A stretch of 64,000 nucleotides of DNA from an uncultured Rhodospirillaceae bacterium. Lineage in GTDB: Bacteria > Pseudomonadota > Alphaproteobacteria > UBA9219. The DNA is taken from assembly GCA_964449155.1 (NCBI GenBank), contig CAYVBP010000002.1, forward strand, positions 334 to 64,333, written 5' to 3'. The position numbers were made by a program. Positions 42,001 through 51,000 of the stretch are shown here, one piece after another. Numbering within the stretch: position 1 is the stretch's first letter; every line of letters begins with the position of its first letter.

Positions 42001-45000
42001 GGCAATAGCATTTGTTGCTGCGGCAGAACCCGCAATGGCCCAAAGCTCGGGGACAAGCGTGGGGACGGTGGCGGAAACGTTCGGACAAGTTCTTTGCAAC
42101 GCCGTCTTGAATGCCAAGCCTTTTGGAAAGGTTTTTTCAATAGCGGCTTACATATGCGGGGTTCTTGCCGGGCTTAGGGGCATTTATTACCTTCGCATGC
42201 ATGGCGAAAATGCCAGTCAGGTTAAACTGGCCATCCCTCTTATGTATTTTCTCGGCGCGGCCTGTCTTATGGCGCTTCCCCAAGCTGCGGAAACGATCAT
42301 AACCAGCTTCTATACGCCCCAAGGTAGCGGTGCCAGCGCATTGTCGAATTGCGCGCCGGGAGACGCGACTGTCATTGCGCAAGGCCCCGATGAAATGATG
42401 TCCAATTTTGTAACCAACATCAAGCAACCGATGATCGACGTTTGTTCGATAACGGCAATGCTTGCGGGTCTGTTCATGATCGTTAAAGGGTTCATTAAGG
42501 CCTCAAAACATGGAATGGATCCGAAAGAAAGCTCGGTACACAGCATTTTGACAAATCTTGCGTTTGGGGCCTTTCTGGTTACCATCGGCGACAATTTGAA
42601 CATCATGCTGACGACGGTTTTTGGCGAGAACACCATTGCAAATACGGCGCTGAACTGGAATCTTCCGAGTAATTCGGGGATATCTCAGCAAGCCCTTGAC
42701 CGTTTTCAGCGAGGCGTTGCTGCGTCGCTGGCTTTTTGTCAGTTAATTGGCGCAATAGCTTTTGTGCGCGGATGGTTAATGCTTAAAAGATTTGTCGAGG
42801 GGGCGGCGAACGTATCGATGGGTGCGGCACTAACTCATATTATCGGCGGGTGTATCGCGATAAACATAGGTGCTTTCTTAAAAATTATGGACAAAACGTT
42901 TGGAACGGGCCTTCTTCAGTAAATAAGGTCATTGTTCTTGATAAAGGATGTGGGCGCGTCTCGCGGTGACTAACGCGCTGTTTACATATATAAAATAAAG
43001 CCCAAAGGGCGAAAATTAAGCTGCTGTTAAGGAACGGGAAATAGAATCGACCGCGAAAGTAGTAATAAGACAAATTATTTCCAACCCTTCAGGAGGAGAA
43101 GAAACAATGAATGCAAAGATGAGGAATATTCTAGTCAACGACGTGCTGACAGGCCTCGTTGTCGCAGCGACGCTCGCAGCGGTCATGCCTGTCGATGCGT
43201 TTGCTCAAGAAGGCATCGCAGGCATTACGGGCAAGGTTCAATCGAACATTGCGGGCTCGTTTATGAAATTCGTCAGTATGGCCAGCTACTGTTTTGGCAC
43301 CATTTTGACGGTCACGGGCATTGCTTCTGCTAAGAAGCATGCGGATAACCCCTCGACCGAACCGTTGAATAAAAGTCTCGGCAGGCTTGGCGCCGGTGCG
43401 GCGTTCCTTGCGGCACCGACTCTTATCGGCATGATCTTGGCGACTGGCAGCTCGACGCTTAACAGCGGTCAGGCGCAGTTCTCTGAAATCCCCGGATTTT
43501 AAGCGTCGATTGAGAAAACGTTGTCTTTTCTTCCTCTAATCCTCGGCTGCGGTTTGCCGCCCGTCGCCGAGGGCGGAGGCCTTAGGCTTCCGTCCAAAGC
43601 ACAAGCTGAAAAGATTTTGGATCGCGACAATTATACGTGTCGCTTTTGTGGTTTTCGTTCGCGCCAATATCAGCGCGTTGTTCCTGTCGAAAAAGATTTT
43701 GCTACGGCCTGCGGTTTTTGCGAACAGGCGTTGTTTCTTGAGCGCTCTGGGATTGTGAACAGTGGCGTGCTGATCTGGCTTCCCGAGATAACCCAGGCGG
43801 AGCTTAATCACATCGTTCGAGCCGTCTATATCGCGCGTGCCGAAGAAGGCAGCGAAATTGCGGCGGCGGCTGATCGCGCGTTTGACGCCCTTATGGCGCG
43901 CAGGGTAGACGCCAAGAAGCGGTTGGGCAGCGAAGACCCCATCGTTCTTTCGACGGTGCTTCACGAAAACCTGACGGCGAAAGAGCGTGTGGCTGCATCA
44001 AAGAAACTCGAAGGAATTCGCCTGCTGCCCTTGGATAGATATATCGTGCGCGGGCATAACGGGGATTTCGATGGGTTCCCCCAAATGGTAAAATATTGGA
44101 TATCCAAGGACGGTCCCTACGCTGCGATCCCGACTTTGGAATGGCAAAAGCTCTTTGAGAAAGTCGCGCCCCGACGCCCTCTCGATTCACTGTGATTCGG
44201 GACTGGTATGACTTTCGAAAGAACGGAGCAAAAAGAGCGTATCGATTGGCCCCATCGGGCGTTTGTCGCAATCTTTGACGCGGGGGCCGTTCTTGCCGTC
44301 GTTTATCTTATCATTATTGCCAACCATATTTTTCACATTCTTCCCGGTATCGGATATGTCAAACATTCAATTTGGCCGATAGATACGGATTTCCTGAACT
44401 ATTGGACGGCGGCACGCCTTGCAATCGCAGATCGTGCGATTGATATATTCAATCCGGAGGCCTTTAGAAATGCGACCGTTGCCTTGACCGGCCACGTTCC
44501 CGTCCAGATTCATTCGTGGCCGTATTCGCCGCTTCCTTTGGTTTTTATGTCTTGGCTCGGCGCGCTTCCCTACAAAATGGCGTTTTGCCTTTGGATGGTT
44601 CTGACTTTTATTCTGTACGCAGCATCCGTCGCCGTTAAGCGGCCCGACTCGTGGAAGGTTGTGGGGGTCCTTGCTCTTGCGCCGGCAACGTTCATGAATG
44701 TCATGCACGGGCAAGGCGGTTTTCTTACGGCAGCATGCCTTGTGGGCGGACTTAGGCTGATGGACAAGCGCCCCGTTCTTGCAGGCGCGTTGTTTGGCTT
44801 GTTGACGTTTAAGCCGCATTTGCTGTTGCTTATGCCGTTCATCCTGTTCCCGAAAGACCGACGGCGTGTCCTTGTTTCAGCTGTGGCAACGACGGCAGTC
44901 CTTTTTGTTGTGAGTCTTGCCTGTTTCGGGCCGATGCCGTGGATCGATTACTTTCAGAAGATCGTTCCTTATCAAAAAGCGTTGATGGAGTTTCCTCCAG

Positions 45001-48000: not shown

Positions 48001-51000
48001 GTTAAGAAGGTGAAACCCCCACGCCTTTAGTCCGATTGCTTGAAAGACGAAAAGATAAAGCCCTCCCTGCAACGGTCGATAGTAATCGCCGAACGTAAGG
48101 CTTCCCGTCGTTAGAGACGACGAAAAAATTGACGGCAAATACCGCCAGCCTCGCAAAAACTGGTTATCGACGACCGTATTTTCGTCGTCGAAAAGAAAGG
48201 CGTTATGGTAAACGTTCGAATAAACGGCGAAAACGACGCCCGCCAAGAAAAGGCAGGGCCACGCCGTATCCCAAAAACCTTGGTTTTTCCTATAGAATAT
48301 TTTGCATAACAGGCTGGTCATAAAACCTCAAAAAGGGACCTTAGTTAGCTATCCTCAAAAGGGCACGCGGTGTCAAAAACTTTTTTGTTTCCGAAACTTG
48401 CGGAAATCGCACGCCCTGTACTATGCTAAAGGCATGACAATGCAACGCCCAAATTCGTATACGTTTCTTCCCGATGCCGACGGGCATTTCGGGGCCTATG
48501 GCGGCCGTTTTGTTCCGGAAACGCTGATGCCGCTCGTTCTCGAGGTTGAAAAAGCCTATACTGCCGCAAAAGCCGACCCGTCGTTTATGGCCGAGCTTGA
48601 CTATTACTTAAAGTATTACGTCGGGCGTCCGTCGCCGCTTTATTTTGCGAAAAGAATGACGGAGCATTTCGGCGGCGCAAAAATCTATTTTAAGCGCGAA
48701 GAGCTTAATCACACCGGTGCGCACAAAATCAATCATTGCATCGGCGAAGTTCTGTTGGCCAAGCGCATGGGCAAAACGCGCATTATCGCCGAAACGGGCG
48801 CGGGCCAGCACGGCGTCGCCACGGCGACTGTTGCGGCGCTGTTTAATTTGCCGTGCGTGGTCTACATGGGCGAACTCGATATCGAGCGTCAGGCTCCAAA
48901 TGTATTCCGCATGCGCCTTCTGGGCGCAGAGGTCCGCCCCGTTAAAACAGGATCGCGGTCGTTGAAGGACGCCATGAACGCCGCCCTGCGTGATTGGGTC
49001 GCGAACGTCGATGGCACGTTTTATATCATCGGAACAGTCGGTGGCCCGCATCCGTATCCCGCGATGATTCGAGATTTCCAGTCTGTGATCGGCCGAGAAG
49101 TTCGTCAGCAGCTTATGGAAGCTGAAGGCCGTCTGCCCGATTCGCTGATTGCTTGTATCGGTGGAGGCTCGAACGCCATGGGCCTTTTCTATGAGTTCCT
49201 GAACGATCCCACGGTAGCAATGTTCGGAGCCGAAGCCGCCGGGCTCGGCATTGAAACCGGCAAGCATGCCGCTGCGCTCGAAGGCGGTCGGGAAGGCATT
49301 TTGCACGGTATGCGCAGCTATTTCTTGCAAGATCCTGACGGGCAGATTTTGGAAGCGCACTCTATTTCGGCCGGGCTTGATTATCCCGGAGTTGGCCCCG
49401 AACACGCGTGGCTGTTTGACCAGAAACGCGTCACGTATGTTCCTATTACCGACGACGAAGCCGTCGAGGCGTTCCAGTTGTGCAGTAAGCTCGAAGGCAT
49501 TATGCCCGCGCTGGAATCCGCGCACGCGCTGGCCTACGTTCCGAAACTTGCGCCGACGCTGCCCAAAGATCATCTGATGGTCGTGAACATCAGTGGGCGC
49601 GGCGACAAGGATATTTTTACGATCGCCAAAAGAATAGGGGTCAAGCTGTGAGCCGCATCTCCGCCCGCTTCGCCGAGCTCAGGGCCGCGAAGAAAAAAGC
49701 CTTCATTTCGTTCACGTCTGCGGGCGACCCGGACCTAGAAACATTCGGCGAGATTCTTGAGGGTCTGCCAAAAGCGGGTGTCGATTTAATCGAAATCGGC
49801 ATGCCGTTTAGCGATCCCGTCGCCGACGGGCCCATTATCGAACTCGGCAACAACCGCGCGTTCAAGGCGGGAATTAAGATGGCCAAGGTTCTCGGCTATG
49901 CCGCCGCGTTCCGCAAAAAAGACGCTAAGACTCCCTTGTTGTTGATGGGCTATGCAAACCCCATCTTTTTTTACGGTCTCGATAAATTTGCGGCGGACGC
50001 TGCCGCTGCTGGCATCGACGGCCTTATTGTTCCCGATCTTCCACCCGAAGAAGACGCCGACCTGCGTCACCACGCGCAAGCGTGCAGCATCGACCTTATC
50101 CGCTTTGTGACGCCGACGACGGACGCGGTGCGCTTGAAAACGGTATTGGCGGGGGCAGGGGGGTTCTTATATTACGTTTCTGTGTCCGGCATCACAGGCA
50201 CAAAGCAAGCCGTGACAGACACTGTGCGCTGTGGGATCGAAAAAATAAGGCCGTACTCGTCTCTTTCCATTGCCGTCGGTTTTGGCATATCCGCGCCCGA
50301 ACAGGCGCGCGCCATCGCGCAAGTTTCTGACGGAATAATCGTGGGCAGCGCAATCGTTAACCGGATCGCGCAAAACCTTGACTCTGAAGGTAAATCACGG
50401 CCCGGTTTGGTCAAAGATGTCCTAAGCTTCGTAAAAACCCTTTCCGACGCGGCGCACGAGGTCTAAAGCGGCGAAAACAGGCGTATTCTTGCAGGGCAAA
50501 ATCATAAACTGACGAGAAACCAAGGAAGATGTGATTCTCAGGAAGTATCTGAAAAAGAAAGGGACTTTCATGGAAGAAGAAGGATTGGGGGCGGCGACGC
50601 AGGCGAGTTTTGAGGCGTGGGTGAAAGAAACGCCGGATCCTCGGGTGGAAAAGATGGTGACACACCCGCTGCCGGAGTTGTTGTTTGTGCTGTTTGTCGG
50701 GCAGATGTGCGGAATGGAAGATGTGGATGAGATCGTCTTGTTTGCGCGAAGGCATCAGGATTGGTTTTGCAAAATCATGGATTTCAAGGCGGGGATCGCG
50801 TCGGCGCAAACATTCAAGCGCGTTTTGAGCTTAATCGACGGCAAAACATTTGAACGGCTTTTCACAGCATGGGCATCACAGTGGTGTGCGCCCGGCGTCA
50901 TTGCAATTGATGGAAAATGCTTGAGAGGCGCATCTGAAAAAGGCGATCAACACAAAGCTCTCTATACCGTGAACGCGTTTGCAAGTCGCACGGGTTTGGT

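Follow-up and report, generated by a model that had tools for sequence, protein, structure and literature searches.

Why should a single membrane-embedded chain carry the same glycosyltransferase module twice, and do both modules work? The question is raised by a gene of 858 codons (44208..46784, plus strand) in a 64,000-nucleotide (nt) stretch of DNA, here called the window, from an uncultured Rhodospirillaceae bacterium (GenBank assembly GCA_964449155.1, contig CAYVBP010000002.1, positions 334 to 64,333 of the forward strand). The gene lies just behind an icmJ-like gene of the Dot/Icm type IVB secretion system (T4BSS) and runs tail to tail into a gene for a 538-residue membrane protein with tetratricopeptide repeats (TPR). 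Its product, a GT87-like glycosyltransferase with ~24 predicted transmembrane (TM) helices, was read in an earlier note, made from the sequence alone, as the internal tandem duplication of a GT-C/DUF2029-like (now GT87) module. Sequence, profile and predicted fold bear this out, and the protein is two complete GT87 (PimE-like) copies set head to tail in one open reading frame (ORF).

The internal repeat

The self-alignment proposed with that claim gives 46% identity and 64% positives between residues 1-428 and 429-858, over 377 amino acids (aa) with 3 gaps and an E-value of 2e-114, and the repeat is real and well beyond chance. A global alignment of the halves is collinear from the charged N-terminal cytoplasmic segment through to the basic tail, and all the motifs quoted in the earlier note are found in both halves, either as counterparts (DFLNYW with DFLTLW, FKPH with YKPQ) or twice over (WPYSPLPL, GGLRLMDKRP[VI]LAG and LRDAVI..ALF..TPY). 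Unit 1 is taken as residues 1-424 (44208..45479) and includes D61 (44388-44390), Y65 and K202 (44811-44813); unit 2 is residues 425-858 (45480..46781), with D481 (45648-45650), L485 and K622 (46071-46073) at the matching places. The linker between the units, residues 407-433 (45426..45506), has 9 lysines or arginines in 27 aa and is presumably cytoplasmic.

That the fusion is genuine, and not two adjacent genes joined by an error of assembly or sequencing, or a pseudogene in decay, seems well established. Unfused tandem pairs of GT87 relatives are common elsewhere, and one double-length relative (P0214) does appear frameshifted in its second half, so the doubt has a basis. Against it, an identical 858-aa protein is present in the Logan assembly of SRR8925805, and a second sample (SRR8925806) yields the same 2,577-nt ORF with 5 substitutions and no indel, 3 of these changes being synonymous and the 2 non-synonymous ones (R419H and Q422R) both falling within the inter-unit linker. 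An ORF kept intact in this second, independent assembly makes an artefactual join or a hidden frameshift very unlikely. The unit junction itself has no stop or frame change, the invariant residues are kept in both units and both units fold with high confidence, and so the chance that these are really two genes can be put as very slight indeed.

GT87 membership, fold and putative active sites

The whole protein matches the Pfam family GT87 (PF09594, formerly DUF2029) in two stretches, with an E-value of 1.3e-45 and 156.5 bits. Each half taken alone is also above the family threshold, unit 1 with 92.8 bits and unit 2 with 83.1 bits (cut-off 25), and the profile comparison suggested in the earlier note thus came out positive for both. 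An AlphaFold2 model, built from a 72-sequence family alignment, has a mean pLDDT (the per-residue confidence) of 83.8 and a pTM (the global one) of 0.69; the helix order of unit 1 recurs in unit 2, and by DSSP reading each has ~12 TM helices plus juxtamembrane helices. A linker helix at 414-429 is of low confidence, with a comparable C-terminal helix at 836-857. When the model was searched against the Protein Data Bank (PDB) with Foldseek, the top match was PimE (9dm5 and 9dm7; probability 1.00, TM-score on the target 0.66-0.69 over ~420 columns), followed by PIG-U, GPI mannosyltransferase I, ALG6 and ALG3. Within the structural alignment the identity to PimE is ~14%.

PimE, the mycobacterial alpha-1,2-mannosyltransferase that depends on polyprenyl-phosphate-mannose, has both its N- and C-terminus in the cytoplasm and crosses the membrane with 12 TM helices; its catalytic D58 sits at the tip of juxtamembrane helix 1, Y62 is hydrogen-bonded to D58 and is needed for activity (Y62A is inactive), and K195 and H322 contact the donor phosphate (PMC12041525). 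In the model of the 858-aa protein the first juxtamembrane helix of each unit (60-73 and 480-493) has D61 or D481, respectively, at its start, and the pairs K202-P203 and K622-P623 come after the short sixth helix. D61 and K202-P203 are invariant across the 72-sequence alignment and identical in unit 2, as indeed are all the family-invariant columns when the two units are compared. From these positions D61 and D481 are inferred to be putative catalytic aspartates equivalent to PimE D58, and K202 and K622 putative phosphate-binding lysines equivalent to PimE K195. By profile, by fold and by these positionally assigned residues the 858-aa protein belongs in GT87.

The likeness to PimE thus extends over family, fold, a unit of ~400-420 aa and the places of the Asp and the Lys-Pro pair, and the cytoplasmic termini of PimE are expected for each unit of the window protein too. 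By analogy, each unit would have 12 TM helices, with the active sites in the periplasm and the ends and linker in the cytoplasm; as the TM helices of each unit would be even in number, joining the units head to tail would leave the catalytic loops of both in the periplasm. The basic segments of the protein are the N-terminus, the linker and the C-terminal tail, the last with 8 lysines or arginines in 31 aa. The differences are that PimE is a single unit while the window protein has two per chain, and that the host here is a Gram-negative, alphaproteobacterium-like metagenome-assembled genome (MAG). The substrate of PimE, the acylated phosphatidylinositol mannosides, is not to be expected in such a host.

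Origin of the duplication

Searched exhaustively with HMMER, a set of 1.84 billion representatives yielded 5,287 relatives of the 858-aa protein, nearly all of them single units of ~390-430 aa; a word-indexed homologue search returned only the protein itself. Even the nearest of these relatives are just 39-48% identical, roughly the similarity that the two units have with one another. A scan of genome contigs with a 6-sequence alignment as query gave 47 loci with GT87 relatives, the majority in Alphaproteobacteria.

Two contigs, which hold the closest relatives and appear to carry just one unit at this locus, are of particular use for placing the duplication. One (L003, which is the same contig as L053; its MAG bears the label Bdellovibrionales) has icmC-, icmD- and icmJ-like genes 45%, 56% and 66% identical to those of the window, in the order icmC-icmD-icmJ, then a single complete GT87 gene of 413 aa, then tRNA-Thr(GGT). 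The other (L104) has a GT87 unit, 413 aa long or longer, that is convergent with a homologue of the 538-aa protein across a 17-nt gap; its ORF reaches the contig end, and the gene is probably single-unit. In a bootstrapped neighbour-joining tree the four units (unit 1, unit 2 and those of L003 and L104) group together in 100% of replicates, the L003 and L104 units pair in 99% and units 1 and 2 in 78%, and so the duplication most likely took place within the lineage of the window. Identity between the units by codon position is 0.55, 0.65 and 0.41, as expected of an old duplication held under purifying selection. Under this account a single-unit gene resident between icmJ and trpBA would have been duplicated in tandem within the window lineage, and the copies would then have merged into one frame by losing the intervening stop and start. 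A trace of the antisense 3' end of the 538-aa gene in the inter-unit linker, which might have dated the overlap of the two genes against the duplication, was looked for, and no DNA or peptide similarity was seen.

Recurrence of the double architecture

The window protein is not alone in its layout. Among the best 150 relatives, 6 are double-length proteins (728-906 aa), all of them internal duplications with 36-71% identity between units. In three of these (P0129, P0130 and P0153) the units are each other's closest relatives, in a clade distinct from that of the window protein, and so, barring concerted evolution that would give the same pattern, fusion would have happened four times or more. 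On the same proviso, at least three further independent origins lie behind the other double-length relatives. Unfused tandem GT87 pairs are present at 6 of the 47 genome loci (L008, L025, L027, L030, L036 and L041). Recurrent fusion and tandem pairing together suggest that two units often act together.

Yeast Pmt1-Pmt2 and mycobacterial EmbA-EmbB are paralogous GT-C pairs that form dimers, and what they share with the window protein is an association of two diverged GT-C paralogs. They differ from it in being separate polypeptides of other families (GT39 and GT53 respectively), whereas the window units are covalently fused. Both pairs are listed among GT-C structures (PMC11127046). A further reading of the repeated fusions and frequent tandem pairs, speculative and on the whole unlikely, is that Gram-negative GT87-like enzymes normally work as obligate paralog dimers with two cooperating periplasmic sites, of which the window protein would be the single-chain version, building an undescribed envelope glycoconjugate in an uncultured T4BSS-bearing lineage, possibly with the neighbouring GT-C protein that bears TPR.

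Work on GT87 enzymes has been nearly confined to mycobacteria, and no literature was found on the function of the mostly alphaproteobacterial relatives assembled here. A natural double enzyme, of a kind fused several times over, is evidence of the Rosetta-stone type for joint action of the two units, and as a single chain it would lend itself conveniently to structural studies of GT-C module pairing. What is new is this single-chain double-module architecture and its independent recurrence; the GT87 family itself is known, and the layout is rare but recurring. The event is otherwise an ordinary duplication and fusion that reveals no new pathway alone.

Proposed reaction and alternatives

Taken as a whole the protein is probably, if well short of securely, a two-module GT-C(A) enzyme of the GT87 family that arose by tandem duplication in its lineage, has both sites in the periplasm, and uses a polyprenyl-phosphate-hexose donor and an envelope glycolipid or glycan as acceptor. 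In such an enzyme D61 and D481 would act as catalytic base, one per module, K202-P203 and K622-P623 would hold the phosphate of the polyprenyl-phosphate-sugar donor, and a hexose (mannose by analogy) would be moved from the flipped donor to the envelope glycolipid or glycan. The two modules may form a fixed pseudo-dimer, or may make two successive or different additions. A similar logic is known from three-component systems, in which GtrB makes the polyprenyl-phosphate-sugar, GtrA flips it and a GT-C enzyme transfers the sugar in the periplasm (PMC11127046). The expected use of a flipped lipid-linked monosaccharide donor is the same here, but the window enzyme is of another GT-C family, is not in an O-antigen or phage locus, and has no synthase or flippase gene adjoining it.

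Several observations weigh against this account, at least in parts. Sequence searches of the PDB with the 858-aa protein, with a two-unit profile and with a 17-sequence profile found no chain, PimE included, so that only the fold search tied the protein to PimE, and the matching of individual residues therefore relies on where they lie and on their invariance, not on a residue-level structural alignment. The counterpart of PimE Y62 is Y65 in unit 1 but L485 in unit 2. A positive-inside count over a naive 12-TM assignment contradicts itself in the central part of each unit, and only the assignments of the termini and linker are kept from it. As to the origin, unit 2 falls outside the group in 17% of bootstrap replicates, which would imply an older duplication followed by loss in the relatives. 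Lastly, among the annotated ORFs of the window there is neither a GT2 polyprenyl-phosphate glycosyltransferase for donor synthesis nor a flippase.

The Tyr-to-Leu change bears on a rather unlikely variant of the proposal, in which only one module is catalytic and the C-terminal unit is a structural or substrate-binding partner within a pseudo-heterodimer. Unit 2 is indeed on the longer branch of the tree, and is 43-44% identical to single-unit relatives as against 47-49% for unit 1; the inactivity of PimE Y62A adds to the case. Yet unit 2 retains every family-invariant column, the Asp and the Lys-Pro included, and is recognised as GT87 by itself. Moreover close single-unit relatives vary at the position four on from the Asp (L, F, I, Y or M), and many of them lack the Tyr and are presumably active, so the position is not defining for the clade of the window protein. 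Two working modules thus remain the preferred reading. Somewhat less likely again than a silent second unit is the idea that the double glycosyltransferase and the 538-aa protein are a periplasmic glycosylation pair, carrying out for instance protein O-glycosylation and then elongation. Both proteins are of the GT-C type and would draw on lipid-linked donors at one and the same membrane face, and the genes are convergent neighbours both in the window and in L104, where the 538-aa relative is 52% identical and the closest known. Against such a pair, a 538-aa homologue occurs without GT87 at this locus in L051 and in L106/L107, a GT87 gene occurs without the 538-aa homologue in L003, none of the 47 GT87 genome loci has such a homologue within 7 kb, and convergent genes are not co-transcribed. 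The pairing in two lineages is a weak lead.

Of lower probability still, and best called doubtful, is a role for the enzyme as a Dot/Icm accessory, co-transcribed with icmC-icmD-icmJ and glycosylating a component of the secretion system or of a pilus. The gene does begin 12 nt after the end of icmJ on the same strand, the icmC-icmD-icmJ-GT87 order recurs in L003/L053, the IcmJ protein there being the most similar of the three, and the window holds further T4BSS genes and a type IVb pilus cluster. Against this, among ~50 IcmJ loci a GT87 gene follows icmJ on that one contig only, besides the window, although the icmC-icmD-icmJ trio is kept at many loci. Equally similar IcmJ proteins are encoded without the enzyme, in L050 where icmJ leads directly to trpB-trpA, and in L051 and L106/L107 where icmJ faces only the 538-aa homologue. 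In a canonical cluster (L054) icmJ is followed by a 996-aa protein, presumed from size and position to be IcmB (it has no Pfam hit), and then by DotM, GT87 being absent. These arrangements, set beside those of L003 and the window, indicate that what lies between icmJ and trpBA varies. As to the pilin, S-layer or LPS put forward in the earlier note as possible targets, GT87 relatives elsewhere are mostly beside housekeeping genes (gyrB, grpE-dnaK, polA) and not in glycan or pilus clusters; a succinylglutamate desuccinylase-like gene is another of their neighbours, and the neighbourhoods give no functional hint. The link of the 858-aa gene to icmC-icmD-icmJ is therefore taken as positional.

The convergent neighbour and the overlap

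The gene of the 538-aa membrane protein occupies 46705..48321 on the minus strand, and its product had been described as a PMT-like body followed by TPR repeats. The TPR region is the C-terminal third, the family profile finding a designed TPR protein in the PDB at an E-value of 4.7e-90 and the TPR region of OGT at 2e-24. In an 18-sequence end-to-end alignment of the family Y34, Y38, D45 and D46 are invariant, within an N-terminal YxNxF.YDD motif. For the N-terminal body the description has to be softened: the window protein itself does not reach the PMT_2 threshold (16.5 vs 26.1 bits), but the homologues P0018 (31.3 bits) and P0023 (28.1 bits) pass it in the same region, which makes a PMT_2 assignment reasonable at the level of the family. 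The homologues number 420, are ~500-560 aa long and come mostly from alphaproteobacterial MAGs, and some are named O-mannosyltransferase or TPR protein at source. No tested activity for any bacterial member of the family was found in the literature.

The layout recalls the eukaryotic O-mannosyltransferases TMTC1-4 and proteins that combine PMT_2 with TPR. The 538-aa protein is like these in its multi-pass GT-C-like body, the acidic DD of its first loop and its C-terminal TPR; it differs in the window protein being under the PMT_2 threshold and in having no detected DUF1736.

The convergent overlap of 80 nt claimed earlier for the two genes holds at the level of the ORFs, running from 46705 to 46784 with a stop codon on each strand setting its ends. 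Within it lie, for the 858-aa gene, the final 25 codons plus the stop (26 codon positions) and, for the 538-aa gene, ~26 codon positions at its 3' end. The end-points of homologues, also proposed as a check, place the 538-aa end in line with its relatives, but the proteins of L003 and L104 stop short of the C-terminal ~25 residues of the 858-aa protein, a stretch of low model confidence, and this longer tail makes a lineage-specific C-terminal extension the best explanation of the overlap. A scan for promoters and terminators around the genes gave nothing usable beyond one weak minus-strand hairpin (46633-46612). This has a 9-bp stem and lies inside the 858-aa coding region, ~70 nt downstream of the 538-aa stop; it could be a terminator embedded in the opposite gene, but its T-tail is poor.

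In L104 the gene upstream of the 538-aa homologue (2-1363) is that of a protein of the flavin amine-oxidase family which matches UDP-galactopyranose mutase faintly and below threshold (E 0.007), and a link to sugar metabolism is possible but unproven.

The tandem paralogs at 5822-8588

Two overlapping genes on the minus strand (5822-7219 and 7203-8588) encode paralogs of 464 and 460 aa that are 33% identical (E 2e-63). The earlier note had counted these with the two units above as four copies of one glycosyltransferase domain in the window, and that count is unsupported. Compared with the 858-aa protein they give no significant BLASTP similarity (E 0.018 over 29 aa) and hhalign probabilities of 0.4% and 1.1%, and a Pfam search with them yields no match even at an E-value of 10. 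These membrane proteins make up a family that is almost an orphan, with one other homologue (P0274, 35% identity) in an index of 5.8 billion proteins. The paralogs carry the motifs DFYQYWG, LLKPN and FGSxxxWxDW in the order of the GT87 motifs, and the AlphaFold model of the 5822-7219 product, poor as it is (pLDDT 48.5, low confidence), is matched by Foldseek mostly to GT-C proteins (ALG3 with probability 0.97), all at E-values above 0.1. A very remote GT-C kinship is possible.

Genomic surroundings

The window is chromosomal, with dnaA, secA, der, bamB, aroA, grpE, trpBA and thrS. On the plus strand upstream of the glycosyltransferase are an icmC/traQ-like gene (41879-42922; NCBIfam TraQ, E 9.8e-8), an icmD-like gene (43107-43502; DUF6750) and the icmJ/dotN-like gene (43521-44195; NCBIfam IcmJ/DotN, E 5.7e-26). 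This group (41879-44195) is bounded by a DnaJ-domain gene on the side away from the glycosyltransferase, and no icmB comes after icmJ. The Dot/Icm-type genes of the window are in small scattered groups among housekeeping genes, another being dotH/icmK and dotG/icmE (TrbI domain) at 14601-17145, right after dnaA. The type IVb pilus cluster (25137-32911) encodes TcpQ-like, PilN-family secretin, PilO, PilP, GspE-like ATPase and GspF-like platform proteins, and is flanked by mscS-like and mltG/aroA genes.

Downstream, a DDE_Tnp_1 transposase gene (50531-51871) lies between trpA and tRNA-Thr(GGT). In L003 the same tRNA-Thr(GGT) is found at 8365-8439, directly after the single GT87 gene, and its different placement indicates that the region from icmJ to the tRNA has been rearranged among relatives. 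Further towards the end of the window, on the minus strand (61086-63056 and 59165-61076), the gene of a 656-aa ATPase of the AAA_21/SMC_N type adjoins a histidine-kinase-like ATPase gene and a gene with a response-regulator domain.

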